A stretch of DNA of 64,000 bases, from the NCBI GenBank assembly GCA_034189385.1, contig JAXHVD010000003.1:128001-192000 (forward strand). The letters are read 5' to 3'. How positions within the stretch are numbered: position 1 is the stretch's first letter; every line of letters starts with the position of its first letter. Shown in pieces: positions 47,077 through 64,000 of the stretch. The notes beneath the pieces are model-generated. The model had not been told where the DNA came from. It was given only the letters and a program-made list of their open reading frames with translations, and did not search any database. The stretch is from Thermodesulfobacteriota bacterium. GTDB lineage: Bacteria > Desulfobacterota > Desulfobacteria > Desulfobacterales > C00003060. Made by a program: the position numbers and the translations under genes.

Positions 47077-48630
47077 TCAGGACATCTTCTCTTGCAGACC
47101 TTTCGCCTGAGCGCGAATGGCCTGCTGCCTTTCTCTTGACAACCTGTCAAGGTTCCTAAACTGCAACCCCATTCGTGGGTTCTTTCTCAGGAACGTCTGG
47201 TGACGCATCAGGAAATCCCAATACAACGTGGTAAAGGGACAGGCAGCCTTAGACACCGCCTGCGATGGATCATAGGGACAAGCCGTGCAGTAATTGCTCA
47301 TGCGCTGAATGTATTTTCCCGTGGCCACGTAAGGCTTTGAAGCCATGATACCGCCGTCTGCAAACTGTGACATCCCCAGGGTGTTGGGCAGCTCCACCCA
47401 TTCCACGGCATCCACGTAGACCGCTAGATACCACTTGTGCACCTCTTGCGGCTTCACGCCCAAAAGGAGGGCAAAGAGGCCTGTCACCATCAATCTCTGG
47501 ATGTGATGGGCGTAACCGTACGAGAGGGTCTGCCCGATGGTCTCTCGAAGACAAAGCATGTCCGTCTCCCCAGTCCAATAAAACCGAGGCAACGGCGCCT
47601 GTGCATCTAACCGGTTCAGGTCTCCGTATTCCGGCATGAAGTGCCAGTATATCCCCCGAACGTATTCTCGCCATCCCAGAATCTGTCTGACGAAACCCTC
47701 TGCGGCATTCAACGGGGCGCGGCCCTCCTCATGGGCCCTTTCCGCTGCAGCCAAGACTTTTCTGGGATCGATCAGTTTCAGATTCAAGGAGGAAGACAGC
47801 CGCGAATGGAAGAGATAGGGACTGCCGGCCCACATGGCGTCCTGGTACAGCCCAAATGCGGGCAGGCGGTTTTCCACAAAGTCTGAAAGGGCTTGAGACG
47901 CCTGGCGTGGTGTCACGGGCCAGTCAAAATGTGCCAGACTCCCCGGGTGCCCCGAAAACCGTTTCTCTACAAGCTTCTTGACTTCTCGGGTGGTCTTGTC
48001 CGGCCGGAAGGATCTAGGTGGAGAGACTCTTCCCGGGCCTTCTTTACCGAATGGCTGCCGATTCTCTGCGTCGTAGTTCCATTTGCCTCCCAGGGGCCCA
48101 TCGCCGTCCATGAGGATGCCGGTTTTACGACGCATCTTTCGGTAAAAAAACTCCATTCTCAATTGCTTGCGCTCACCTGCATACTCAGAAAACGTCTGGC
48201 CTGTAGAAAAGAAGTGTCGATCCGACCGCATCTCTATGGGTAACCCTTTAGTCTTTGCCGCTTCCACCAGGGCCTGTTTCACCCTCCATTCCCCAGGCTC
48301 TGCCAGAATCAGCCTCTGGGGGTTGAGGCTTGCGATGGCGGCTTTCAGTGCCAACGAAAAGGTTTCGCGGTTCTCTGGACCGTCTAGCTGGCTGTAGTGG
48401 ACCGTCATACCCTTTCGCCGAAGGGCATCCCGAAAGTGCCTCATGGCGCTCAAAAATAGGGTGATGCGGGCCTTGTGTGACCATACATAGATGGATTCCT
48501 CTGGGATCTCCGCCATCCACACGGCATCATCAGCGGCATTGAATCCGTCAAAGGCCGAGGAGTCCGAATTGAGTTGATCGCCCAGCACCAAGATGAGATG
48601 GCGGGGCTTTTTGCGAGGATCGTAGGACAT
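47077..48630 (-). CDS. FeS-type bacterial cryptochrome/(6-4) photolyase (PhrB/CryB-like)
   Basis: LVLGDQL, GG.WNYD..NR, EGF.RQI.GWREY, GYAHHIQRLM, C-terminal YC..C...CPF cluster cysteines. Confidence 0.93.
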   Translation of the reverse strand: MSYDPRKKPRHLILVLGDQLNSDSSAFDGFNAADDAVWMAEIPEESIYVWSHKARITLFLSAMRHFRDALRRKGMTVHYSQLDGPENRETFSLALKAAIASLNPQRLILAEPGEWRVKQALVEAAKTKGLPIEMRSDRHFFSTGQTFSEYAGERKQLRMEFFYRKMRRKTGILMDGDGPLGGKWNYDAENRQPFGKEGPGRVSPPRSFRPDKTTREVKKLVEKRFSGHPGSLAHFDWPVTPRQASQALSDFVENRLPAFGLYQDAMWAGSPYLFHSRLSSSLNLKLIDPRKVLAAAERAHEEGRAPLNAAEGFVRQILGWREYVRGIYWHFMPEYGDLNRLDAQAPLPRFYWTGETDMLCLRETIGQTLSYGYAHHIQRLMVTGLFALLLGVKPQEVHKWYLAVYVDAVEWVELPNTLGMSQFADGGIMASKPYVATGKYIQRMSNYCTACPYDPSQAVSKAACPFTTLYWDFLMRHQTFLRKNPRMGLQFRNLDRLSRERQQAIRAQAKGLQEKMS

Positions 48631-49084
48631 GAAACCCGATCATTCTCTCAATCGTTGGTAACGTTCAAAACTTGCGGAAAAGGCCTTAAGCAGGCAGTTA
48701 GAGGGATAGGGATGATCGCTTAACGCAGGCATACAGCCATTGCCATCTGCACCAATGGCATAGGCTACCTAAAGGCATTGGATGCCGAAGAGACGTGATT
48801 ATCCCTATCCCGAAGTCGGTTGTCCAGAAATCCACTAAGTCAACACTTTTGAACGTTACTCAATCGTTGCTAAACAATGGTGCCCCAAGGGGCGGGGCCT
48901 ATCCTCTGTCCCACATACAAAGGCCCGTCTTTCAGGCACAGAATCAGCCCCTTCGTTTCCTTCTCCTAGTCGGTTGACACTGCAAACCAACTTATAGCAG
49001 AATATGACCAAGACAAACAGGGATGATGCCGCAAACGCGGGCGTGATTGGAAAGGCCAGGACCGGGATCTGGGGGTTTTTCGCC

Positions 49085-49570
49085 ATGAATACAGAATCGG
49101 ACGCTCAGACAGACCAATACGACAAGGAGCAAGGGCTGAAAGCGCGCCTTAAGGCCCTCTTTTCGTCTCAGAGATTTGCCGTTCTTGCCACGCAAAAAGA
49201 CGGTCAGCCATCTACCAACCTGGTGGCCTTTGCCGCCACAGATGATCTCAGGCAATTGCTCTTTGTTACCCCCCGGGCCACCCGCAAATTTGCCAACCTT
49301 GCCAGTGACGCCCACGTTGCTATCATGATAGACAACCGGCAAAACCTGGTTTCAGACCTCCGTGACGCCATGGCCGTCACGGCCACAGGGGCGGCTGAGG
49401 TGGTGGTGGGCCCTGAAAAAGAGGCCCTATTGGGGTTGTACCTCTCCAAACACCCGTTTTTGGAAACATTTGCAAGGGCCCCCTCTTGCGCTCTCTTGAA
49501 GATCTCCGTTAAGACCTACGACATTGCAGGAGCATTCCAAAACGTGATGGAGCTGAAGATGATGCCATGA
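49085..49570 (+). CDS. Pyridoxamine 5'-phosphate oxidase-like protein
   Basis: AVLAT..DGQP...LVAF, T.R.TRK..NL. Confidence 0.82.
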   Translation: MNTESDAQTDQYDKEQGLKARLKALFSSQRFAVLATQKDGQPSTNLVAFAATDDLRQLLFVTPRATRKFANLASDAHVAIMIDNRQNLVSDLRDAMAVTATGAAEVVVGPEKEALLGLYLSKHPFLETFARAPSCALLKISVKTYDIAGAFQNVMELKMMP

Positions 49571-51747
49571 GTCTCGTCCTCGCCCTTCATGAAATCCGTA
49601 ACGAGCACAGGCCTCTTGTAGGCGGAAAAGGCTTTGCCCTGGCTGCCCTGGTTCAAAGAACCATGGCAGTCCCGGAAGCCCTCTGTGTCACCACCCAAGC
49701 CTACCACCAGTACCTTTCCAGCGGAGGGCTTCGTGACCGGATCGGCATGGAATTGAACCGGAAACCCTTCCAGGAGATGAGGTGGGAAGAACTATGGGAT
49801 GCCGCTTTACGCGTCCAGAACCTCTTCCTGCAGACGCCTTTTTCCAAAGAGCTCTACGAGGCCATTTGTATGCCTATTGCCGAGATCTTTGGGGACAAAG
49901 CAGTAGTAGTGAGATCATCTGCCCTGGGAGAAGATACGGCCCAGAGTTCTTTTGCGGGTCTGCACGAATCGTACGTCAACGTCAGAGGCACAGAGGCTAT
50001 TTTGGACCACATACGGCTCGTTTGGGCCTCCCTCTGGTCGGACCGCGCCCTGCTGTATCGACAGGAATTGAACCTACAGGTTGAAAAGAGCGCCATGGCC
50101 GTGGTGATTCAGGAAATTCTAGTGGGAGAACGATCAGGTGTCGTCTTTGGCAAGGACCCCAACGATCCGTCACAGACGGTCATCGAGGCCGTGTATGGAT
50201 TGAATCAAGGGCTGGTCGATGGGACCGTCGAGCCTGACAGGTGGATTCTGGATCGCCAGAGCGGGCGGCTCATCTCTCATGTGCCTGCCAGCAGAAAAAA
50301 GGCTATGGTCCCTGTCCCCGGGGGCCTTCTCCTTGATGCATTGCAGCCTGACAAGGCCGATTGCCCACCCCTTGACCAGGAGGAGATGGCCAGGGTCTTT
50401 GAACTCTCACGGAAGACAGAAGAGGTCTTTGACGCTCCCCAAGACGTGGAGTGGACCTTTGGCAAAGATGTACTCTATGTCCTTCAGTCACGTCCTGTCG
50501 CGTCGCCCCTGTCAACGGCTCATGACGACAAGAGGCCATGGTATCTCAGCTTGAAGAAGAGCTTTGAAACCTTAAAGGGCCTTCGCAAGACGATCGAGGC
50601 CGAGTTGATACCGCAGATGCACCAAGAAGGGCGAACCCTTGCCGCGTCCGATCTGGATCAGCTATCAGACGTTGAGCTCGCAAAGGAAATCGAGCTCAGA
50701 AGAAGCATCTACCAGAAGTGGGCACGAATCTACGAAGAGGCGTTCATCCCCATGGCCCACGGCATTCGGCTCTTTGGGCAGGTTTATAACAACACGGTCC
50801 GCCCGTCAGATCCCTATGAATTCATGACCCTTCTGGGAGCCACGGAGATGGTCAGCCTCAGACGCAATGGCATGCTTGATGACCTGGCAGCAATGATCCG
50901 ATCGAACCCCAAGCTGGCGGAGCGCTTAAGAAACGGCGATCTCTCTGTTGATGATGACGCCTTCCATGCTGGCCTTCGAGATTTCGCAGACGAATTCACC
51001 GATCTGTCGTGCGGTACCGATCAATGCGTCAGTGGCCAACACGCCATCGCGAAGCTTCTCCTTGAAATGGCCGGTCGTCCCTCTCTGAGACAGGCTGTTC
51101 CAAAGAAGGACTTCCAGGGCCTTAAGGATGCGTTCTTGTCTCGTTTTCAGGCCAATCAACGCTCCTATGCTGAAGAGCTTCTTGATCTTGGACGGGCCAG
51201 CTACCGCTTGAGAGATGATGACAATATCTACTTAGGCCAGGTCAGAGCTCAAATGGACCGAGCAGTGAGCGAGGGACGGAATCGGGTAAAAAGCACAAAC
51301 AAGACAGAGGGTCGTGCGTCCGCCGCCCACAGCCTTGCAAAGGCCTTAAAGACCCACGACCTTCTCTTTCAGACCCACCTCTCACCTGTTTCTGAAAAAG
51401 CAGGGCTTCAAACCACGGTCAGGCAAATCGTGGGACAACCGGCAGGACCTGGAATTGGAAAAGGCCCGGCGCGGGTGATTGCTGACCCGTCTGATTTGAT
51501 GGATTTTCAAGCCGGAGAGATCCTGGTATGCGATGCACTGGATCCAACCATGACCTTTGTCGTCCCTCTGTCAGAAGGAATCGTGGAACGCCGGGGCGGC
51601 ATGTTGATCCACGGCGCCATTATTGCCAGAGAATACGGGCTCCCATGCGTTACCGGGATCCCTGAAGCGGCCTCGGTCATCAAGAACGGTGAGCAACTTA
51701 CTGTCGATGGCTATCTGGGCATTGTCACCATCCATCGTGAAGCATAA
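49567..51747 (+). CDS. PEP-synthase/PPDK-type phosphotransferase (N-terminal ATP-grasp + C-terminal His swivel; rifampin-phosphotransferase-like architecture)
   Basis: VGGKG, VRSSA..ED....SFAG, QDVEW, LQSRP; GG...HGAIIAREYG.P.V. Confidence 0.88.
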   Translation: MSLVLALHEIRNEHRPLVGGKGFALAALVQRTMAVPEALCVTTQAYHQYLSSGGLRDRIGMELNRKPFQEMRWEELWDAALRVQNLFLQTPFSKELYEAICMPIAEIFGDKAVVVRSSALGEDTAQSSFAGLHESYVNVRGTEAILDHIRLVWASLWSDRALLYRQELNLQVEKSAMAVVIQEILVGERSGVVFGKDPNDPSQTVIEAVYGLNQGLVDGTVEPDRWILDRQSGRLISHVPASRKKAMVPVPGGLLLDALQPDKADCPPLDQEEMARVFELSRKTEEVFDAPQDVEWTFGKDVLYVLQSRPVASPLSTAHDDKRPWYLSLKKSFETLKGLRKTIEAELIPQMHQEGRTLAASDLDQLSDVELAKEIELRRSIYQKWARIYEEAFIPMAHGIRLFGQVYNNTVRPSDPYEFMTLLGATEMVSLRRNGMLDDLAAMIRSNPKLAERLRNGDLSVDDDAFHAGLRDFADEFTDLSCGTDQCVSGQHAIAKLLLEMAGRPSLRQAVPKKDFQGLKDAFLSRFQANQRSYAEELLDLGRASYRLRDDDNIYLGQVRAQMDRAVSEGRNRVKSTNKTEGRASAAHSLAKALKTHDLLFQTHLSPVSEKAGLQTTVRQIVGQPAGPGIGKGPARVIADPSDLMDFQAGEILVCDALDPTMTFVVPLSEGIVERRGGMLIHGAIIAREYGLPCVTGIPEAASVIKNGEQLTVDGYLGIVTIHREA

Positions 51748-53250: not shown

Positions 53251-53697
53251 TTATCTCTGATCTGCCACTTCCATGATGTGTCTGAAGACATCGGCCAGGG
53301 TGACGACGCCCACGAGTCTGTCATCCTTCATCACAGGCATCTGCTTGATTTTTCTAAGGGTCAAGATCGAACCAGCCTTTAAAATGCTGGTCTCCTGATC
53401 CAGTGTCATGGCAGGAGCGCCCATCACTTCTCTGACCTTTATCTTCTTTACCTTTTCGATTCTATTCTGAATATAACCAAGATCCGACAAGTGCTTCTCG
53501 TCCTTATATATGTCAGGATACCTGGGGAGGACAGACCTGAATATATCCGCTCTGGTAATCACCCCGACGACACGATGATCATGGACCACAGGGGCCCCAT
53601 TGATGTCGTGCTCCTGTAATAAGCGTCCACATTCTTCTATGGTTAAATCTTCCTCCACCGTAATCACAGGAGACTTCATAATCTCGTCTATTTTCAT
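53251..53697 (-). CDS. CBS-domain protein
   Basis: IM.SPVITV, G.PVV....VG.IT..D; second CBS repeat. Confidence 0.9.
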   Translation of the reverse strand: MKIDEIMKSPVITVEEDLTIEECGRLLQEHDINGAPVVHDHRVVGVITRADIFRSVLPRYPDIYKDEKHLSDLGYIQNRIEKVKKIKVREVMGAPAMTLDQETSILKAGSILTLRKIKQMPVMKDDRLVGVVTLADVFRHIMEVADQR

Positions 53698-53818
53698 TGT
53701 CCCTTTCCTTCCCAATCGCTGTCAGTGACTGGAGACGCTCCAAAAACCCAGAACCTATTCTCACAAAGACACGGTTGCTTTTCAAAGGCACGGTATGTGC
53801 ACTTGGTGGCAGCCTGGG

Positions 53819-55051
53819 TCAACGAGAGGCCGCATCGCTTTTAAAGGCATCGACGTTCTCTATGTGCGCTTCTTCCTCGGTGATGGTCGTAAGGGGCGGA
53901 TCATCAGCGATATCCATCCCCGGCACGTAATCAAAGACTCCCGTAAGCTCCCTGTTTACCATCTGGTAGAGCCTGGTCAGGGGAATTTCCATAGGACACA
54001 CATCTTGACACTGCCCGCAATTGACACAGGAGTCTGCCACATGAGCCAATCTGATTAAAGGAAACATGATATGGGGCGGCGTTTCTCCAGCTTGCACAAG
54101 ATCTCTTGATGGCTCCAGGTAACAGTCCTGACAGTAACAGATGGGACACACATCCCTGCAACCAAAGCACTTGATGCACCTGTCAAGATATCTTAGCCAG
54201 TATTGCAATCGATCCTCGTAGGGAAGCCATCTTAGGACATCCAGGTCCTTTTCTTGCCAGGTCTGGGCCAATTCAACGGCCTCTTGGTCTTCTTGTTCCC
54301 TTTCCTTTAAGGCTTCCTGATCAGGCGGCTCCGCGTGAAGGGCACCCGCTTCCAAGGCCTCTTCCATCAGGTTGGAGCCTTTCTCCGAGCATACTTCTAT
54401 GAACGTAGCCTGTTGGCCCTTTGTGCCCCACTTGCCACAAGCCAGATCAGCCATCCGAGGAATATTGAAGGCGCACCGCCTACAATTTTCTCTTCTGCCA
54501 TATCCCTGTTCCTCTAGCTCCTTTAGATCCCTTTCTTTTTTGCTCCCATCTGCGAGCGTGATGACAAGTTTTTTTGAATCAAGCTCCTCGCCCACCACGT
54601 CCTCAGGGTTGACCTGATATGCCTCTGAAATCATTCTTCTGGCAACGCCTGGCATCAATGTGCCCGTGCAGTTCAGGCCTATTAAGAGGAGATTCTCGGT
54701 ATTGATTTGTCTCCTTTTCGCTAGCTCTATGATGGCACGGCAGTCACAGGGCTTGCAGGTCACTGCCACCTTCAGGTCTTGGGCACCGTTTAGATACTCC
54801 CTTATCTCTTTGGCTACATTCACTGGAGCAACGTGCAGGGTCCCAGCACAGGTGATGACTTCGTCGGGATTCGATATGAGAGACACCACTCCATCATATC
54901 TGTTTCCATCTCTTTTTCGGACCGCCAATACGGCATCTACAATCTTACGCTCAAGGGCAAACTTCAGCAACGCAGTGACTGCACCACCTGATGCGCCCTT
55001 AGACCGAATTTGCTCGTCAGTGGACCAAGCAAGATACATGTCGCCTTTCAT
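53819..55051 (-). CDS. fdhB: Formate dehydrogenase beta subunit, F420-reducing FrhB/FdhB family with C-terminal 2[4Fe-4S]
   Basis: GASGGAVTALL, KPCD.RAI.EL, IGLNC.G, RR.NCRRC, AD.ACG.WG, CIKCFGC...CP.CYC, CVNCGQC.DVCP. Confidence 0.88.
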   Translation of the reverse strand: MKGDMYLAWSTDEQIRSKGASGGAVTALLKFALERKIVDAVLAVRKRDGNRYDGVVSLISNPDEVITCAGTLHVAPVNVAKEIREYLNGAQDLKVAVTCKPCDCRAIIELAKRRQINTENLLLIGLNCTGTLMPGVARRMISEAYQVNPEDVVGEELDSKKLVITLADGSKKERDLKELEEQGYGRRENCRRCAFNIPRMADLACGKWGTKGQQATFIEVCSEKGSNLMEEALEAGALHAEPPDQEALKEREQEDQEAVELAQTWQEKDLDVLRWLPYEDRLQYWLRYLDRCIKCFGCRDVCPICYCQDCYLEPSRDLVQAGETPPHIMFPLIRLAHVADSCVNCGQCQDVCPMEIPLTRLYQMVNRELTGVFDYVPGMDIADDPPLTTITEEEAHIENVDAFKSDAASR

Positions 55052-57081
55052 TATGATACCTTCTCTACCTTCACTGCACAGAACTTGAACTCCGGCATCT
55101 TAGACGGAGGGCCTGCACAGGGTCCTGTCAAGACGTTTGGTGCGCATTCTGAAAAATGCCAAGGCACAAATATCAGGCCTTTCCTAATGTCTTCTGTTAC
55201 CCTAGCCACTGTCTCTATCGTGCCTCTTCTGGATGTTAATCTCACCTGGTCTCCGTCTTGTATGGAGAGGGCCTGGGCATCTTCAGGGTTTATCTCTGCA
55301 AATCCATGGGGCAGCTCATTGTTCAGGCGCCCAGTTCGTCTGGTCATGGTGCCTGAATGAAAATGGAATATCACCCTGCCATTTGTGAATATGTAAGGAT
55401 ACTCCTCATCTGGCACCTCCAAAGGGGGAGTGTATTCTGCAACCTGGAATTGTGCAAGACCGTCTGCGGTGGGGAATTTGCCAACAAACATGACCTCCGT
55501 CCCAGGATGATCCTCTGTGGGGCATGGCCATTGAATGCCGCTGGGATTTTTGAGCCTTTCATAGGTAATCCCCTTGTATTGAGGCACACATTTCCTGATT
55601 TCCTCAAAAATATCAGCCGGGCTCTGAAAACCAAAGGCCGCCTCAAAACCCATCCTCTTTCCCAATTCACAGAAAATGTCCCAATCCGGTCTTGCATCAC
55701 CCGGCGGCGCCACGGCCTTGTAGAGCCTCTGAACCCTTCTATCTACCCCGGTCATGGTCCCGTCCTTTTCCACGGACGTCGCTGCAGGGAGCACAATGTC
55801 AGCCATTTTTGCCGTTTCTGTCATAAAGATATCCTGGACGACCAAGAAATCTTTGCTTTTCAGGGCCTGCCTGACGCTTGTCGTATCTGGCGCAGCCGAC
55901 ATGGGATTCGCCCCCACGATGTATAAGACTCTGCATTTTCCCACCATGTCCATGTAAGTCATTCCAGGGGTTGAAGGCAGATCCTTGACTCCCCAGAGGT
56001 CTTCAAAACGCCTGGCTGTTTCCTCATTCACCTTTTGAAATCCAGGGTAGAAAACTGGCAAGGGCCCCATGTCCCCAAAGCCCTCACCATTGGCATGACC
56101 CCTCAGGGGGTTTACGCCAGTACCCGGCCTTCCATAGTTTCCCGTCATGAGTGCCAAGTCCACCAAAGCCCTGATGTTCTCTATGCCTGCACCATGCTGG
56201 GCAATGCCTGCATTGTATAAGATACAGGCTTTTTCGGCCTTCCCGTACATGAGTGCCGCCTCTTTGATCACATCAAGGGGGATCTCCGTGATGCGCTCTA
56301 TTTCACGCAGATCCAGACTCTGCAAATAGCTCTTCAGGTCCTCAAATCCTTTTGTCCTCTCTTCTATGAACCCTTTATCCTCTAGCCCCTCATCCAAGAT
56401 GAGCTTCATCATGCCGTTGACCAGGGCATTGTCCGTCGCAGGGTAGATCTGCAAGTACAGGTCTGCAAGGTTTCGAGCCGTGATCGTCCTTCGGGGATCT
56501 GCAACGATCACCTTGGCCCCTTTACGCTTTGCCCGTATGATCCTGCGGGCAATGATGGGATAGGTTTCCTGGAGGTTGGGACCGGCCACAAAGATGCAAT
56601 CCGCCTGCTCAATACTGATAGTGGACGTTGGCATCACGCCTGAGCCCACTGTGGAAAGCAAGGCGGGCACTGAGGTAGAATGGCAGAACCTGGAGGCATT
56701 ATCCATGTTGTTTGTCTTCTTAACGACCCTGACAAACTTCTGAATGACATAGAGATCTTCGTTTGTACACTTTGCAGAATTGATGAAGCCCACCTCATCG
56801 GAAGCCGTGCTGCCCAATTTGTCTGCGATCACCGAAAGGGCAGCATCCCAGGAGGTCTCCGCAAAGACACCGTCTCGTTTTACTAACGGCCTTACCAGCC
56901 TTTGATCACTCGTTGAACAGGCATGGGCGTTTCTTCCTTTCTGGCAGTTTTTGCCCTCACATACGGGATGCCCCTTCCACGGCTCCATGCCCACCAACTC
57001 GCCGTCTTTTACTACCAAGTAGATGCCACATCCGCAGCCGCAGTAAGGGCAAATAGTCGGTACGTGTTCAATGGATGTCAT
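55051..57081 (-). CDS. fdhA: Mo/W-bisPGD formate dehydrogenase alpha subunit (Cys form, cytoplasmic, no Tat signal)
   Basis: TICPYCGCGC...C.KG, DNASRF-C-H, PLRG, VVQDIF.TETA..AD..LP, PEFK.CAV. Confidence 0.85.
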   Translation of the reverse strand: MTSIEHVPTICPYCGCGCGIYLVVKDGELVGMEPWKGHPVCEGKNCQKGRNAHACSTSDQRLVRPLVKRDGVFAETSWDAALSVIADKLGSTASDEVGFINSAKCTNEDLYVIQKFVRVVKKTNNMDNASRFCHSTSVPALLSTVGSGVMPTSTISIEQADCIFVAGPNLQETYPIIARRIIRAKRKGAKVIVADPRRTITARNLADLYLQIYPATDNALVNGMMKLILDEGLEDKGFIEERTKGFEDLKSYLQSLDLREIERITEIPLDVIKEAALMYGKAEKACILYNAGIAQHGAGIENIRALVDLALMTGNYGRPGTGVNPLRGHANGEGFGDMGPLPVFYPGFQKVNEETARRFEDLWGVKDLPSTPGMTYMDMVGKCRVLYIVGANPMSAAPDTTSVRQALKSKDFLVVQDIFMTETAKMADIVLPAATSVEKDGTMTGVDRRVQRLYKAVAPPGDARPDWDIFCELGKRMGFEAAFGFQSPADIFEEIRKCVPQYKGITYERLKNPSGIQWPCPTEDHPGTEVMFVGKFPTADGLAQFQVAEYTPPLEVPDEEYPYIFTNGRVIFHFHSGTMTRRTGRLNNELPHGFAEINPEDAQALSIQDGDQVRLTSRRGTIETVARVTEDIRKGLIFVPWHFSECAPNVLTGPCAGPPSKMPEFKFCAVKVEKVS

Positions 57082-57514
57082 GAGCGCCTTCTCTCTCTAT
57101 CCTTTGTGACAGAGGGTTTGGTCCAATGCCTCTTGCCTCTTCTACAAAGTCCCTGACCAATTGCGCAAATTGCGGACCCTCCGATGCGGATACCCAGGCC
57201 AGGCGCAATCTGGCCGGATCGATACCCACACATTCCAGCAATTTCTTCGTCATCAAGACCCGTCTTCTTACGTGCAGATTACCTTCCAGGTAATGACATT
57301 CACCCGGATGTCATCCCCCCACAAGCACGGCATCTATGCCCTGAGTCAGTGCCTCCAAAATCATGACAGGATCAATTCTCCCAGTACACATGACCCGGAT
57401 CACCCGGATGTTGGGGGGATATTGGAACCTGGAAACGCCAGCCAGATCGGCTCCGGCGTAAGAACACCAGTTGCACAGAAAGGCTATTAATTTGGGTTCA
57501 AATGAACTTGACAT
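57068..57514 (-). CDS. mvhD: Selenocysteine-containing MvhD ([2Fe-2S] Hdr adaptor)
   Basis: [25 protein letters not shown](TGA 57311-57313)-HPGECHY..GN, W.SASEG; hairpin ATTACCT-gga-AGGTAAT at 57278-57294. Confidence 0.92.
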
Positions 57515-57619: not shown

Positions 57620-60600
57620 CTAAACAACAGCATGAATTTGTGCCCTGATTTGATGTTGACTAAAATGACACATATCAACGGCTTTTGACGGACAGCTCGC
57701 AGCACAAAGGCCGCAACCCTTACAGGATGCAGTAATGTTTTCAGCCTTCATTTCACCATGAAGCTCCACTAGGTGGATGGCATCGAAGGGACACACCCTT
57801 TCACAGATGCCGCATCCATTGCACATATCCGTATTCACCACAGATACAATGGGCTCGATCTCCACTGCATCTTTCATTAAGATATTTGCAGCCCGGGCAG
57901 CAGCGGCTTTGGCCTGGGCAATAGACTCCTCAATCGGTTTAGGATATTGACAAAGCCCTGCCAAGAACAGGCCTTGAGTGGCAAAATCAACGGGCCTGAG
58001 CTTCATATGGGCCTCCAAGAAGAAGCCTTCTTCGGTGGTGGACACTTTATAGAGTTTGGAAAGGGCCATGTTGTCATTTGGTAAAATGGCAGTGGCAAGG
58101 CAGATCATGTCTGGAAGGATTTCAAGGGGTCTTTGCAACACGTGGTCCGTAATCCTCAGCTTGAGTCTGCCATTTTTCCTCTCAACCGTAGGTTCATTTC
58201 CCAGGTTGTAGCGAATGAACAGCACGCCTTTGGCTCTGGCCTCTGTGTACAACTCCTCCCTGTCCCCAAAGGTCCTGATATCCCGATAGAGGATATATAT
58301 ACGCATATGGGGATTGAGCCGTTTCAGGGCCAACGCACTGACCATAGAATGGGTGCAGCAAACCTTACTACAATAGGGTCTTTCAGGTATTCTGGATCCT
58401 ACGCACTGGATGAAGACAACGCTCTTGGCGTTGCTGATCCGTTTACTACGGCCCACGATCTCTTGATCAAGTTCCAGGGGCAGCAATACATCTGGGTCTC
58501 TTCCATATAGATATTCCCTGGGCTTATAGGGTTTGCCGCCAGTCGTCATGATGACTGCCCCGTGCTGCAATTCTGTCTCTTTGCCCTCCTCGTCAAGGAG
58601 CGTGGAGGAAAACCCTCCCACAAAACCAGAGGCGTCCTTGATGGTTGTCCGAAGCCAAAGAGTGATCAATGGATGCTCACGGACCTTTTTGATGAGGTCT
58701 TCTACATAAGCCCTTATATCTTCGCCTTTATAGGTGGTGTCAAGATGGAGGGCCTGACCGCCCAGTCTATTCTCTTTTTCGACGAGATCGGTCTTGAACC
58801 CTTGCTCAGCCAGACTTAAAGCGCTCACCATGCCTGCCACGCCCCCACCGATCACCAACCCCTGGTGGTTGACCGGTACAGATATGTCCGCCAGCGGCCT
58901 GATGAGCCTTGCCTTGGCCACAGCCATTCTGACGAGGTCTTTGGCCTTTTTGGTAGCTGCATCCGGCTGTTCCATGTGGACCCAGGAGCATTGATCACGG
59001 ATATTTGCCATCTCAAAGGTGTATTTATTCAAACCGGCCTCGCGGAGTGTTTCTCTAAACAGGGGCTCATGGGTCCTTGGCGTGCAGGAGGCAACGACCA
59101 CCCGGTTAAGGTCATATTCTTTGATGTGTTCCCTTATCCTGTTTTGGGTATCCTGGGAGCAGGTGAAAAGATTTCTATCTGCTACGACGACATTGGGAAG
59201 GGTCCGCGCATATTCAGTGACTTCAGGGACGTTGACCACGCCCCCAATATTGATCCCTCAATGGCAAACAAAGACGCCTATGCGCGGTTCCTGACCAAGG
59301 ATCTCTTTTTCAACAGGATACTCCTTTTTCTTCACCAGCGTATTTCTTGCCGGCGCCAGGAGGCCCATGGCAGAATCGGCTGCAGCACTCGCCTCCATGA
59401 CCGTACCTGGGATGTCCTTTGGTCCTTGAAATGCTCCGCACACATAGACCCCTGGCCTTGAAGTCTCTACAGGAGAAAGGCACTGCGTCTTTGCAAAAAG
59501 GTGGTTATCCAGCTCTATATGGAGCCGCTCAGCCAAAGCTTCAGCCTTGGCAGGAGGCATGAGGCCAATGGAAAGGACCACCATGTCAAATACTTCCTCT
59601 TTCCTCTCGCCTGTTTCACTGGCATAGACCAGCTTGAGGTCCCCACTGTCTGCCACGGGCTCTATGGAGTGTATCCTTGACCTGATAAACCGGACACCAA
59701 ATTCATCCTTGGCCCGGTTATAGTACTTCTCAAAATCTTTGCCGTAGGTCCGCATATCCATGAAGAAGATGGCTGTATCTAATGGCAACGAGCTGTGTTC
59801 CTTGGAAATGACGGCCTCTTTGATGGCGTACATGCAGCACACAGCAGAGCAGTACCCTTGGTCACATTGGTTTATATTCCTTGAACCCACACATTGAAGC
59901 CAAGCGATCTTTTTCGGTTCTTTTTCGTCAGACGGGCGCACAAGGTGGGCCTTGTAAGGACCGGAGGCACTCAGAATACGCTCGAATTCCATGCTCGTGA
60001 CCACGTTGGGAAAGCGGCCATGCTGATAGAGATCATCGCCTGAAGGATCGTATGGCTCAAAACCTGGGGCCAGGATGATGGACCCAACATTTAGTTCGAC
60101 TGTTTCATCTTCTTGAGAGTGATCGATGGCATCAGCAGCGCAAAACGCAGTACATATCTTGCATCCACCGGTCTTGAAGTGCATGCAGTATTCACGGTCG
60201 ATTGCCGGCGCCTTTGGCACGGCCTGAGGATAGGGGATGTACACCGGTTTTCGTCCGATAAGCCCCATGTCATACTCAGAGGGAATAGGTTCAACGGTAT
60301 GTTTGGTAATATCTTTTAGCTTGATGTGGCCAGTGGGACAAACCGACGCGCAAGCTCCGCAGGCCATACACAGTTCGGTCTGAATATGGAAAGGGGTATC
60401 CACTCTCATATCCACACCCCTGCCGGTCAGGGTGATGGCACTGTTTCCCATCCTCTCGCAAACACGGACACAAAGACCGCAGAGGATGCAATCATCGTCC
60501 CTCTTCTTAAACCGCGGTTCCTTGATCCCATATCGCGCTGCCAGCTCCTTGACCGTAGGCACGTTCGGACAACGAGCAAGGAGGAGTTCCACGATCAGTT

Positions 60601-60856
60601 TTCGCCCCTCATGGACTGCATCGGTCTCCGTGCGAACCTCCATCCCTTCCTTGATGGGGTAGTTACATGCCGTGACGAAATTGGTCTTACGGCCATCAAA
60701 AACCTCCACCGTACAAAGACGACACATCCCCGCAGGCCCAAGGGCCTTATGGTAGCATAAGGTGGGAATCTCGACCCCGTATCGTTCGGCCACCTGAAGG
60801 ATGTATTCTCCTTCTTCTCCCTGGACGTCTTTTCCATTCAGCTTAAAATGTACCAT
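57620..60856 (-). CDS. hdrA: Fusion of NuoG/HydA N-terminal FeS domains to a tandem HdrA-like flavoprotein; contains Sec
   Basis: IPTLCY..CRLC.VE..ACN [2Fe-2S], CILCGLCVRVC, then HdrA body (EFERILSA, QCVGSR, YCS.VCCMYAIK); IGVFVCH-U(TGA 59258-59260)-GINIGG in frame with 57620-59239 (C.PRTHE, NIRDQC.W.H, GGG.AG, EAH.KLRPVD, C-terminal ferredoxin); hairpin at 59226-59244. Confidence 0.88.
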
Positions 60857-60976
60857 GGATTACTCCCTGTTAACGCGCTGTTGCCCAAATCGCTTTTCGC
60901 TTTGGCTAAAACCTTTTTTGACAAATCTAAAGCTCACTCCAGGCGATGTCAAAACTCGCCCTTTTGGCTCTGCAAC

Positions 60977-62878
60977 TCATTCTATACAGATGGCGTTGAA
61001 CTTACAGGCATTGTAACAGATGCCGCACTTGATGCATTTCTCCTGGTCTATGTGATGGCATTTCTTCTTTTCACCGGTGATGGCCTCCTGCGGACATTTG
61101 AGTGCGCAGAGATGACAGCCGTTACACAGAGCTTCATCAACTTCGTAATGAAAAAGGGCCTTGCAGACACCTGCGGGGCACTTCTGATCCTTGATGTGGG
61201 CCTCGTACTCATCTCGGAAATAGAGGAGCGTCGTTAACACCGGATTGGGGGCTGTTTTGCCTAGTCCGCACAGGGAAAACCTCTTGATCATGGCAGCCAG
61301 CTCCTGAAGGAGTCTGATGTCGCCCTCCCGGCCCTTTCCCTCGCAGATATCACCCAGGATTTCTGCCATCTGGGTAATCCCTTCACGGCAGGGCGTGCAT
61401 TGACCACATGATTCGTTCTTGAGAAAATCCAGGAAGTATTTTGCAATGTTGACCATGCAGGTGTCCTGGTCCATGACGATCATACCGCCCGAGCCCATGA
61501 TCGAGCCAAGCTCGCTGAGCTTCTGGTAGTCTACCGGGGTATCGAGGTACTGTTCAGGGATGCAGCCACCGGAAGGCCCCCCTGTCTGAACAGCCTTGAA
61601 TGCCTTTTTCTTCGGAATGCCGCCGCCTATATCAAAGACGATCTCTCGCAAGGAAATGCCCATGGGGACTTCTACCAAGCCGGTATTTTTCACCTTCCCC
61701 ACGAGGCTAAAGACCTTCGTCCCTTTGCTGTGCTCCGTGCCGATGTTGCCGTACCACTGGGCACCCTTTAAGAGGATCACCGGGACATTGGCATAGGTCT
61801 CAACGTTATTCAGGTTGGTTGGTTTTTCCCTGAACCCTTTTTCCACAGTATGCACATATTTGGCCCTGGGTCTTCCCACTTGACCTTCCAACGAAGCCAT
61901 CAAGGCCGTTGATTCACCACAAATAAAGGCCCCTGCCCCAGTGGAGATCTTGATGCGGAAACCAAAATCAGTCCCCCCTATATGGTCACCAAGCAACCCA
62001 TAGGCCTCTGCCTGCTTGATGGCTGTGACCAGGCGCTTAACCGCCAACGGGTATTCATGCCGCACATAAATGAAGCCTTGATGGGAGCCAATGGCCCGTG
62101 CTGCAATCAACATCCCTTCCAGGACACTGTGGGGGTCGCCTTCCAGAATACTCCTATCCATGTAGGCGCCCGGGTCGCCTTCATCGGCATTGCAGATGAT
62201 ATATCTCTCACCCTTCAGTCTTGCACAACTTTCCCATTTTATTCCTGTTGGAAAGCCAGCACCACCGCGACCCCTTAACCCCGATTCCTTGATGGTCTTA
62301 ATAATCTCAGGGGGGTCGCCTTCCAACAGGCATCGCATAAAGGCTAGGTACCCGCCTTTGGCGATGTACTCTTCGATGCTATCGGGGTCAATATAGCCAC
62401 AATTGCGCAAGGCGATTTTTGTCTGTTTACTGTAAAAGGGGACATCCTCCAAGAAGGGGATCCCCTCGATGGGTGCTGTCTCGGCAAGGGGGTTTTCCAT
62501 GTCTTCTTCTAATAGGGAACGAGGATCGCGCATTTGGGCTAGGATCCACTTTTTATTGAAATCGCCTTGGATGTAGCCTTCAATGGCGTCTAGGATCTTC
62601 TCCTTGGAAAGGTGCCTGTAAACCACTCTCGGCCGCCCCTTTCCGAAGATTTCGACCAAGGGTTCTTCCTGACAGAAACCCAGACAACCGGTCTTGTGGA
62701 TCTCAATGCCAGGGTCCTCTGGAAATGCCTCTAAGGCCTTTTCAAAGGAGGCCTTTGCACCGGCTGCGATGCCACAGGAGGCCATTCCTATGTTCACCGC
62801 GATGCCTTCTGGGTGGTATAGCCTGTTGCTGTAGTCCTGCCTGATCTCTTCCAGGTCTTTAATAGACCCCACTTGCAT
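60977..62878 (-). CDS. nuoF: NuoF/HydB-like flavin (FMN)/NAD(P)H-binding subunit, long form
   Basis: N-terminal thioredoxin-like [2Fe-2S] region, GLRGRGGAGFPTG, CNADEGDPGA, ESCGQC.PCR, C-terminal 2x CxxCxxCxxxC; start refined to ATG 62878. Confidence 0.92.
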   Translation of the reverse strand: MQVGSIKDLEEIRQDYSNRLYHPEGIAVNIGMASCGIAAGAKASFEKALEAFPEDPGIEIHKTGCLGFCQEEPLVEIFGKGRPRVVYRHLSKEKILDAIEGYIQGDFNKKWILAQMRDPRSLLEEDMENPLAETAPIEGIPFLEDVPFYSKQTKIALRNCGYIDPDSIEEYIAKGGYLAFMRCLLEGDPPEIIKTIKESGLRGRGGAGFPTGIKWESCARLKGERYIICNADEGDPGAYMDRSILEGDPHSVLEGMLIAARAIGSHQGFIYVRHEYPLAVKRLVTAIKQAEAYGLLGDHIGGTDFGFRIKISTGAGAFICGESTALMASLEGQVGRPRAKYVHTVEKGFREKPTNLNNVETYANVPVILLKGAQWYGNIGTEHSKGTKVFSLVGKVKNTGLVEVPMGISLREIVFDIGGGIPKKKAFKAVQTGGPSGGCIPEQYLDTPVDYQKLSELGSIMGSGGMIVMDQDTCMVNIAKYFLDFLKNESCGQCTPCREGITQMAEILGDICEGKGREGDIRLLQELAAMIKRFSLCGLGKTAPNPVLTTLLYFRDEYEAHIKDQKCPAGVCKALFHYEVDEALCNGCHLCALKCPQEAITGEKKKCHHIDQEKCIKCGICYNACKFNAICIE

Positions 62879-62891
62879 CGCCTGAAACCCC

Positions 62892-63389
62892 TTAGTGATA
62901 TTCATCCAACACCTTTTGTATGTTTTCCTGGCTGACCCGGCTATAGACGTCTTCATTGATCTTGACGACTGGTCCAAGACTACAGCATCCAATGCAGCGC
63001 ACAGGCTCGAGAGTGAAGCGCATATCTTCCGTTGTTTCTCTGGCGCCCACATGGAGAATCTCCTGGATCCTTTCCCACAGCCTTGCCCCGCCCCTTACAT
63101 GGCAGGCCGTCCCCAGACAGACAGAGATGATGTTTCTGCCTTTGGGGACCAGACTGAAGCTGCTGTAGAACGTACCGACAGCATAGATGAGACTGATCGG
63201 CACCCCTATCTTCTCAGAAAGATAGGTCAAAGATGCCTGGGGCAAGTGGTTATACTGACGCTGAATGGCCTGGAGAATCATGATAAGATTCTCTTTGTCG
63301 TCGTGGAATTCCTCATCTATGATCCGATCAAGTTCCATGTAATCGATCTCAACGGTTTGCTCCATCGTAGATAGCGCTATGTCAGTCAT
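62892..63389 (-). CDS. nuoE: NuoE/HydC-like [2Fe-2S] subunit
   Basis: TFY..F, VCLGTACHV.G, V.C.GCCSLGP. Confidence 0.92.
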   Translation of the reverse strand: MTDIALSTMEQTVEIDYMELDRIIDEEFHDDKENLIMILQAIQRQYNHLPQASLTYLSEKIGVPISLIYAVGTFYSSFSLVPKGRNIISVCLGTACHVRGGARLWERIQEILHVGARETTEDMRFTLEPVRCIGCCSLGPVVKINEDVYSRVSQENIQKVLDEYH

Positions 63390-63620
63390 ATAGGTGTCTC
63401 CCTCACAGGAAAAAGGTCTATTCCCTAGGTGTTGAGAATAATTAGAAATGGCGTACTCGAGGGTGGACTGCAGGTTATTGAAAACTCACCCCTGGCTCCA
63501 TGGATAACGAGCAACAGGAAGGCCTATTTGTTTTCCGTGCACTTCTCTTTCCAAGACTCCGATACGCCATACGCGACGTTTGCCCGTTGGCGAGTCCTTG
63601 TGGACTCGCAACACCAAGAC

Positions 63621-64000
63621 TTATCCATCCATAACCGCTTGATTGGTCACCGGGCAGTTCTCCACACAAAGGCCGCACCCAATACAACGGCTCAAGTCGA
63701 TACTCCGGGCGCGCTTCTTCACCTTTACTCTGAAATTGCCAGCAGAGCCATCCACCGATTCGATGTCGGCATAGGTGATGATTTCGATATTCAGGTGGCG
63801 ACCGCATTCCACCAACTTTGGCGACATGATACACATGGAACAGTCATTGGTGGGGTATGTCTTATCTAGTTGGGACATCTTGCCGCCAATGGCTGGCGTA
63901 TCTTCAAGTAGATAGACATAAAAGCCAGCATCGGCGAGATCAAGGGCAGCTTGGATGCCACCGATGCCACCACCTACCACCAACACGGCACCGACTTTGT
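63621..64000 (-). CDS. hdrA: Stand-alone N-terminal segment of HdrA (FAD Rossmann motif + one ferredoxin motif); 5' end outside the window
   Basis: KVGAVLVVGGGIGG.QAALDLA, IGG.M.QLDKT.PTNDCSMCI..PKL, CIGCGLCVENCP, then a stop after 9 further residues. Confidence 0.88.
   Translation of the reverse strand, partial: KVGAVLVVGGGIGGIQAALDLADAGFYVYLLEDTPAIGGKMSQLDKTYPTNDCSMCIMSPKLVECGRHLNIEIITYADIESVDGSAGNFRVKVKKRARSIDLSRCIGCGLCVENCPVTNQAVMDG

Follow-up and report, generated by a model that had tools for sequence, protein, structure and literature searches.

We report that the gene for an HdrA-type flavoprotein is cut in two around a Bfu (HydABC-type) module in a conserved operon of a sulfate-reducing Thermodesulfobacteriota bacterium. 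The operon lies at the end of the window, a stretch of 64,000 nucleotides (GenBank assembly GCA_034189385.1, contig JAXHVD010000003.1, positions 128,001 to 192,000; G000:C23:128001-192000, where G000 is the window's own genome), and coordinates are window positions unless another contig or locus is named. On the minus strand, the genes follow one another in the order 133-aa open reading frame (ORF), nuoE, nuoF, a fusion ORF starting at 60856, mvhD, fdhA and fdhB. The split is real, conserved and under selection. By analogy with solved structures, we slightly favor the reading that this is an intact operon for a tandem HdrA made of a 133-aa and a 1078-aa chain, with the Bfu module predicted at the low-potential exit and electrons split twice in series.

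Alignment to HdrA of 5ODC revealed that the small chain and the fusion ORF are exactly complementary parts of HdrA. The small chain matches residues 146-259 (E 1e-44), and the fusion ORF consists of a NuoG-like part (residues 1-180) followed by HdrA from 5ODC residue 260 onward (260-565). The initial annotation had recognized the upstream ORF as the N-terminal part of HdrA, and GGGIGG, LDKTYPTNDCSMC and CIGCGLCVENCP are all present in it, followed by 9 residues and a TAA stop. The HdrA continuation EYDMGLIGRKPVYIPYPQAVP was likewise found downstream, about 3.4 kb on, in the ORF starting at 60856, with intact nuoE and nuoF in between. It does not resume directly after CMACGACASVCP, as had been claimed: 20 residues separate the last Cys of the preceding motif (CMACGACASVC) from EYD, compared with 5-6 in intact HdrA. 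Read-through from the small gene into nuoE was rejected given the TAA stop, a 231-nt gap and a frame relation that is not kept among relatives. No promoter or terminator signal was found on the coding strand between these two genes, where scan counts were at chance level.

The inserted 2x[4Fe-4S] ferredoxin has its two motifs in separate ORFs 3.4 kb apart and not in one polypeptide. In ferredoxins of this type each cluster draws ligands from both motifs, and each cluster of the inserted ferredoxin would need ligands of both chains. Furthermore, the first thioredoxin reductase-like domain (TrxR1) finds no dinucleotide-binding fold in the large chain, and a TrxR-fold domain for flavin adenine dinucleotide (FAD) with GxGxxG is present only across the two chains.

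Relatives were collected by scanning one genome per species, which gave at least 596 matches; the best 79 loci were kept. The full BfuA::HdrA fusion occurs in 39 of these 79 loci, and in 32 of the 39 the small HdrA gene stands ahead of nuoE and stops 6-19 residues past the motif, so that the breakpoint recurs in other genomes. Among 300 further genomes sampled from the phylum (11 candidates scored per genome), at least 8 also showed the junction, and 1468 protein clusters matched the junction region at E 1e-40, the best 120 of which were examined.

The small chain evolves under selective constraint. Its median dN/dS was 0.055 and its maximum 0.12 (177 unsaturated of 351 pairs among 27 of 33 sequences, six frameshifted, truncated or unsure-start sequences having been dropped), compared with 0.12 for the fusion, and 59 of its 114 columns are invariant. 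It is also retained when it lies far from its counterpart. In a paralogue within the window's own genome (L080, G000:C62:93311-117292), a distance of 13.6 kb that includes two two-component systems separates the halves, the order, with names read from the sequence, being hdrC-hdrB-small gene-nuoE-nuoF::gltD, about 10 kb of two-component genes, the fusion, mvhD with selenocysteine (Sec), metV and metF. Gaps of 11 to 26 kb separate the small gene from the fusion in G013, G015 and G034. Identities of the small chain and of the core are correlated (rho 0.80), to which shared ancestry contributes, intact proteins giving 0.64.

It is very improbable that the small ORF is an insertion relic, or the layout a misassembly, with a large chain that works alone or decays. 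A few loci speak for this. The small gene was not nearby in 7 of the 39 fusion loci: three run into a contig edge, a scaffold gap interrupts L017, in whose genome no stand-alone copy of the small gene was found, and three lack nuoE as well. Each of the latter three genomes has a stand-alone Sec-containing small gene beside nuoE elsewhere, and these loci would have to borrow both small chain and nuoE from there. Frameshifts occur at L018, L020, L023, L026, L031, L066 and L107, where sequencing error is our assumption. No single contig piece among those listed covers the full stretch, and nuoF is not joined to the fusion by any of them. Against these points stand the low dN/dS, the retained Sec, the same order in 32 other loci and the missing dinucleotide-binding fold of the large chain. 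Moreover, public contigs cover all 30 bins of the stretch in three of four runs. A contig of run X2, from another study, bridges the gap between the small gene and nuoE (63334-63795), and run X4, from a third study, bridges the BfuA-HdrA junction (59618-60578) as well as nuoF-nuoE; run X1 may be the source sample of the window's genome. No RNA data set was listed as containing the stretch. Misassembly was thus rejected on the 32 other loci and on the independent bridging contigs.

Natural single-chain forms provide a further view of how the two pieces belong together. A 1228-aa protein in two genomes of the same genus (L097:3930-7613, plus strand; L103:3456-7139, minus strand) comprises the small chain, a 28-aa linker, BfuA, the HdrA core and the second unit, with no adjacent nuoE or nuoF, and its small-chain part is 79% identical to that of the window. 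P0130 (660 aa) is a further single-chain form with a different linker, and P0121 was grouped with these three as a natural combination of small chain, linker, BfuA and HdrA core. A search for more single-chain forms at E 1e-60 yielded one cluster. The L097/L103-type core is sister to a split form (98% in the SH-like approximate likelihood ratio test, SH-aLRT), and the protein retains CPVTNQ, the tail seen in split chains. This points to re-fusion, and the use of two unlike linkers points to two such events.

We modeled the fusion alone and a natural single-chain homologue with AlphaFold2. In the fusion alone, residues 251-270 and 461-520 had a predicted local distance difference test (pLDDT) score of 26-52, with a weak overall value of 61, whereas the same segments reached 58-82 in the single-chain homologue (overall 63). 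The template modeling (TM) score rose from 0.55 for the fusion alone to 0.84 for the single-chain homologue against the HdrA-like core 6TJR, and from 0.46 to 0.78 against 8RWN_A. In these models the FAD domain is completed only when the small piece is present. Two points temper this result: the TM gain is expected anyway, given the likeness to solved HdrA, and the ferredoxin and linker regions stay below pLDDT 50 in both models, which places the BfuA-ferredoxin contact outside them. With recurrence, low dN/dS, retention despite dispersal and single-chain forms, we hold with high confidence that the two HdrA pieces assemble in trans, and the earlier view of undecayed halves working together is upheld.

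The large chain had been described as ending at 59261, which is very likely wrong. Its stop is an in-frame TGA (VCH-TGA-GINIGG, position 59258), and when this is read as Sec the frame continues to 57620, yielding a 1078-aa protein with a second HdrA unit. At this position, relatives have a Cys codon in 35 of 39 matched rows and TGA in 4 (two of them being one contig), and tRNA-Sec and selB are both present in the genome. In a search for a Sec insertion sequence, RNA folds downstream of the in-frame TGAs did not stand out from shuffled sequences (z scores of -0.08 and -1.66). Judged from the Cys/TGA alternation in relatives, the fusion protein likely continues through UGA as Sec. The extent first given for the locus, 59261 to 64000, captured the split itself and missed the tandem second HdrA half, the Sec codons, mvhD and fdhAB.

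A second Sec site bears on the small chain. Of the 32 small chains in which the position equivalent to C197 can be read, 30 have an in-frame TGA there. In the clade of the window this position is Cys, and TGA is found instead in the large chain, at CH-x-G. The cluster of this N-terminal-type Fe-S domain is one that C197 completes (PMC9012536), and selenium therefore appears to have switched chain while keeping the same site. This relocation, being confined to one clade, counts as a single event. Reading UGA as a stop reduces the small gene to a 59-aa ORF resembling a pseudogene, and Bfu genes are labelled nuoEFG, so that the split system is easily overlooked.

We assign the "Nuo" genes, from their ligands and best matches, to a Bfu module. 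The 633-aa NuoF matches BfuB of the bifurcating hydrogenase of A. mobile at E 2e-214 and NuoF of Escherichia coli at only 1e-99. With BfuB-defining residues taken from PMC9304861 and ligands read off the alignment to 7T2R_B, C474, C512, H561, C567 and C572 align to A. mobile C438, C476, H525, C531 and C536, and BfuB further has two C-terminal motifs and an N-terminal Cys pattern as in 9BOV_B. BfuA has invariant C34/45/48/64 and two four-Cys motifs. The motif beside the junction presumably forms A4 in HydA numbering. A three-cluster BfuA set takes electrons in through A4 (PMC12318220). Complex I NuoEFG was rejected on account of the long BfuB-like NuoF, the presence of only the N-terminal 180 aa of NuoG and an operon without membrane nuo genes. 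The notion that a diaphorase is wired into the ferredoxin arm holds for the tethering, as a prediction; the word diaphorase understates a predicted bifurcating BfuB with its cofactor ligands. In L080, a GltD/NfnB-like domain replaces the C-terminal ferredoxin of NuoF (1037 aa). The design also occurs beyond the tandem type, in the distant BfuA::HdrA fusions P0140 and P0153, one of which has just one HdrA unit and carries MvhD fused at its C-terminus.

The HdrA part retains the signatures of its family. All 37 fusions keep E292 and K346 of TrxR1 and the four ligands of the cluster that leads toward HdrC, and K346 aligns to K409 of 5ODC and to the bifurcating Lys280 of BamE, which sits at N5 of the FAD. 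The numbering of the equivalents of 5ODC K409 and E356 comes from alignments. The second domain, TrxR2, has Val at the Lys position in the window, and Lys in 1 of 37 matched rows; BamE likewise lacks the Lys in its TrxR2, which is described as non-bifurcating. The C61/C64 pair is in the small chain, the CH-U-G domain is in the large chain and TrxR2 lacks the pair, a complementary loss. Since the second unit has no C194/C197, the small chain is the sole source of this pair within the operon. Supply of an N-terminal-type Fe-S domain to C194/C197 by the partner unit is a pattern described in PMC9012536.

The proposed electron path is drawn by analogy with structures of Hdr and of class II benzoyl-CoA reductase (BCRII). 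In HdrA and BamE, electrons enter at the C-terminal ferredoxin/MvhD, high-potential electrons leave toward HdrC/BamD and low-potential electrons leave through the inserted ferredoxin (PMC9012536 and bioRxiv 10.64898/2026.04.10.717634). FdhAB would pass electrons from formate to the C-terminal ferredoxin and MvhD and on to the FAD of TrxR1. From there, a disulfide acceptor of the HdrBC/DsrC type, with its genes outside the operon, would take up the high-potential electron; we assume this acceptor because the operon lacks hdrBC and hdrD. The low-potential electron would cross the C194/C197 relay to the N-terminal-type cluster, the two-chain ferredoxin and BfuA (A4-A2-A1), reaching BfuBC, which would reduce NAD+ and ferredoxin in a second bifurcation in series. 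The net reaction would be 4 formate + 2 RSSR + NAD+ + 2 Fd(ox) -> 4 CO2 + 4 RSH + NADH + 2 Fd(red). Using -140 mV for the disulfide, -280 mV for NAD and -500 mV for ferredoxin (from PMC9304861), we computed a mean acceptor potential of about -265 mV for the cascade and -320 mV for Hdr alone, corresponding to about 70-fold in donor concentration. The cascade would thus be a lower gear for weak donors, suiting dilute formate and making NADH-driven ferredoxin reduction feasible in Flx loci. On the MvhD side, the partners in the 39 loci vary (Flx-like in 14, HdrB in 7, DsrC in 8, FdhAB in 2), which fits a fixed core with exchangeable donors.

Several considerations weigh against electrons being split twice in this way. 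The operon contains no hdrBC or hdrD, although dsrA, dsrC and two hdrBC pairs occur elsewhere in the genome. A covalent link fixes proximity and not the electron path, and in BCRII Bfu docks on the opposite side. The value of -140 mV is that of the methanogen heterodisulfide and not of DsrC, and if formate were supplied at standard state, the cascade would be wasteful of energy relative to Hdr alone.

A different use of the same assembly and wiring has HdrA acting mainly as a wire, in a Bfu-type formate dehydrogenase that interconverts formate with NADH and ferredoxin, possibly reducing CO2 for the Wood-Ljungdahl pathway, with no coupled disulfide branch. The lack of hdrBC in the operon agrees with this, as does the FdhAB partner, present in 2 of the 39 loci and in neither with hdrBC in the flanks examined. 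The formate couple, at about -420 mV, is near the Bfu mid-potential (-365 to -390 mV), and genes read from their sequence as CO dehydrogenase, FolD-like and Fhs-like lie on the same contig. We nevertheless regard it as rather improbable, since E292, K346 and the HdrC-side cluster ligands are invariant in all 37 fusions, 7 loci have HdrB and 8 have DsrC after the fusion, and the genome already has a simpler nuoE-nuoF-nuoG::fdhA operon (C23:30138-35469). The latter lies outside the window in G000:C23:30138-36557, where a fructose-bisphosphatase-like gene, nuoE, nuoF and nuoG::fdhA with an in-frame TGA (ARL-U-H) stand next to hdrC/hdrB, and by its gene content it is assigned as an ordinary Bfu-type Sec formate dehydrogenase. 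Also outside the window, at G000:C23:52942-60981, genes of Fhs-like, FolD-like and CO dehydrogenase type surround an intact tandem HdrA of 1023 aa, and more intact tandem HdrAs are found on C16 and C28 (Sec) of the same genome.

The wiring itself could be that of BCRII. A flexible linker would then let BfuA reach the C-terminal ferredoxin/MvhD input, NADH and Fd(red) would be confurcated and then bifurcated, and the two-chain ferredoxin would export very low-potential electrons to another acceptor. This is the sole HdrA-Bfu coupling shown structurally (BamI I3 -> E1/E2 -> BamF -> FAD; bioRxiv 10.64898/2026.04.10.717634). The BfuA of the window has the three-cluster set of the Bam/Wor clade, and the linker is variable in length (20-25 residues from Cys to EYD). 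We consider it unlikely: it needs a BamF adaptor more than 100 aa longer than MvhD, and the window's MvhD has about 148 aa; FdhAB or Flx would contend for the same input side; and the fusion point is constant at the ferredoxin loop, near the NfnB insertion of HdrL. Attachment of the Bfu module to the exit side of HdrA seems probable to us. Coordinates and content of the individual features are given in Table 1.

Table 1. Features of the split HdrA-Bfu operon, with evidence for each assignment.
Feature	Position	Strand	Content and evidence
Small HdrA N-chain gene, 133 aa	64022-63621 (63621..64000 in window)	-	ATG 22 nt past window edge; ends TAA; FAD-binding GxGxxG fold; C61/C64 = C194/C197 of 5ODC; first CxxCxxCxxxCP of inserted ferredoxin
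nuoE-like gene (BfuC), 165 aa	62892..63389	-	Thioredoxin-like [2Fe-2S]; PF01257, E 2e-45
nuoF-like gene (BfuB), 633 aa	60977..62878	-	Best PDB match 7T2R_B, E 2e-214; N-terminal Trx domain, flavin mononucleotide/NAD site (ADEGDPGAYM), B1, B2-site ligands C474/C512/H561/C567/C572, C-terminal 2x[4Fe-4S]
BfuA (NuoG-N-like) domain, residues 1-180 of large chain	60317..60856	-	Best BfuA match 9MQX_A (Wor-Bfu), E 4.5e-42; [2Fe-2S] + 2x[4Fe-4S]; His-ligated cluster motif absent
Linker and HdrA continuation	59261..60316	-	Second half of inserted ferredoxin (C224, C232, C235, C239); TrxR1 core with E292, K346 and cluster C322/C336/C340/C341; start of N-terminal-type Fe-S domain
In-frame TGA, putative Sec (VCH-U-GINIGG)	59258..59260	-	Cys/TGA alternation in relatives, tRNA-Sec, selB
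Second HdrA unit of 1078-aa chain	57620..59257	-	N-terminal-type Fe-S domain; TrxR2 without C194/C197, inserted ferredoxin or Lys signature; C-terminal 2x[4Fe-4S]
mvhD, about 148 aa	57068..57514	-	In-frame TGA at 57311-57313 (GG-U-HPG)
fdhA, 676 aa, Cys-type	55051..57081	-	Fe-S motif at very start; TIGR01591, 771 bits (cut-off 666)
fdhB, methanogen FrhB/FdhB type, 410 aa	53819..55051	-	PF04422, PF04432

Directly 3' of fdhB, possibly in the same operon, lies a gene for a CBS-pair protein (53251-53715, minus strand). Farther away are a 517-aa ORF (47077-48630, minus strand) that we take to be of the cryptochrome/photolyase family and, at 49004-51747 (plus strand), a presumably pyridoxamine-oxidase-like ORF overlapping a 726-aa ORF of presumed PEP-utilising/PPDK-like type.

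Comparison of flanking residues located the break, by sequence, in the loop just after the first motif. The motif is followed by a CPVT-like flank in small chains and by CPTGHI or CPTDHI in 39 of 40 fusions, and the spacing from Cys to EYD is 20-25 residues in fusions compared with 5-6 in the 31 parsed of 51 intact proteins. Recombination between CxxCxxCxxxCP segments had been suggested as the origin of the split; a crossover inside the motif was rejected because each motif keeps its own downstream flank and 14-19 extra residues precede HdrA. At L071 (938-7094) and L094 (47-1398) the same loop is cut by another cassette, in which a Sec small chain is fused to an FdhB-like polyferredoxin and followed by fdhA; next comes, in L071, the HdrA core with a FlxC-like domain fused to it. 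The L071 core falls among intact HdrAs in the tree, which makes an independent split likely. In the HdrL-type inserts of L072 and L076, HdrA resumes at the second motif. Split forms cluster in the tree (3 changes compared with 30.6 when shuffled), and a single origin of the Bfu split was not rejected (approximately unbiased test, p 0.52, 31 rows). The order of events is not given by this tree, which is unrooted and built from a sample biased to the query's best matches.

The layout combines known modules, with BamEFGHI and HdrL as the nearest systems by analogy and a wiring that would be the reverse of that in BCRII. BamDEFGHI of the Geobacter metallireducens BCRII (bioRxiv 10.64898/2026.04.10.717634; "Bam-Bfu" in PMC9304861) shares with the window a fused HdrA dimer, a bifurcation-type TrxR1 (Lys), a non-bifurcating TrxR2, a Sec-MvhD adaptor, a three-cluster BfuA with BfuB and BfuC, and the combination of HdrA-type and Bfu-type modules in one gene set. 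However, BamE is one polypeptide, and its C-terminal ferredoxin, the input, receives electrons from BamI as a subunit of its own, whereas in the window HdrA is cut in the inserted ferredoxin and BfuA is fused there, at the predicted exit. The window operon also has FdhAB and a short MvhD and lacks BamB (W-AOR), BamC, BamD and the long BamF, bamB having been searched within the operon. HdrL of Desulfobacterium autotrophicum (PMC2702500) and HdrA9-11 of ANME-1 (PMC9012536) have in common with it an NAD(P)H module in the inserted ferredoxin of a large HdrA beside mvhD, often near fdh. In HdrL the insert is GltD/NfnB in one chain; in the window it is BfuA, with the break after the first motif, a split gene and separate BfuB and BfuC.

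Methanogen complexes are similar on the input side. FdhAB-MvhD-HdrABC (7BKB) and MvhAGD-HdrABC (5ODC) share FdhA, an FrhB-type FdhB, MvhD and the equivalents of HdrA C194/C197, E356 and K409; unlike the window operon, they have a homodimeric single-chain HdrA that reduces ferredoxin or Fmd, include HdrBC and contain no Bfu. Members of the Bfu family such as Wor-Bfu (9MQX, PMC12318220) and Fdh-Bfu share the BfuBC core and BfuA A1, A2 and A4 as third-substrate entry, as set out in the accessible part of PMC9304861, but in the window the third-substrate domain on BfuA is half an HdrA. This type is not among the Bfu types named in that part of the paper (FeFe, NiFe, Por, Codh, F420, Wor, Bam, Rub, Fdh, Mbh, Nuo, Nfn), and one of its supplementary text files contains no Hdr term. 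FlxABCD-HdrABC of Desulfovibrio (as cited in PMC10553843) has an unsplit HdrA, HdrBC and no Bfu, and the window locus has FdhAB and not Flx; in 14 of the 39 relative loci, though, mvhD and Flx-like genes come after the split HdrA, 8 of them also with dsrC. A trio of YjbQ, Lrp-like and nitrilase-family genes recurs 3' of Flx-type operons, after flxA-like and dsrC genes (L008, L021, L023, L033 and others). Clusters of nuoEFG-hdrA-mvhD in Desulfotignum are listed without a split in the consulted part of PMC4046663. A full-text literature search whose coverage did not extend to the HdrA survey of Appel et al. 2021 and some figures and tables returned no account of an HdrA split around Bfu. According to the BCRII preprint (bioRxiv 10.64898/2026.04.10.717634), no complex with two distinct bifurcation modules had previously been described.

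Tentatively, and with somewhat less than even confidence, a broader reading can be offered, in which these proteins would be the first enzyme class to bifurcate twice outward. A weak donor, such as dilute formate or, via Flx in relatives, NADH, would feed disulfide, NAD+ and ferredoxin, three acceptors served from one donor because Bfu would be hard-wired to the low-potential exit of HdrA. The loop after the first ferredoxin motif of HdrA would be an exchangeable socket, occupied by Bfu and, independently, by a formate-dehydrogenase cassette. The 14-kDa chain, usually a selenoprotein, would complete the bifurcating FAD site as a subunit of its own. Its gene could lie more than 20 kb away, several operons may share it, and it would have been re-fused at least twice.

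If electrons are indeed split twice in series here, the operon would represent a second and commoner case of two bifurcation modules in one complex, wired oppositely to BCRII, and sulfate reducers could use it to reduce ferredoxin with donors that are too weak for ordinary Hdr. Furthermore, the natural cut makes questions about HdrA testable, as the chain that carries the C194/C(U)197 relay can be left out, swapped or mutated alone, and the natural single-chain versions offer a simpler construct for work on HdrA.

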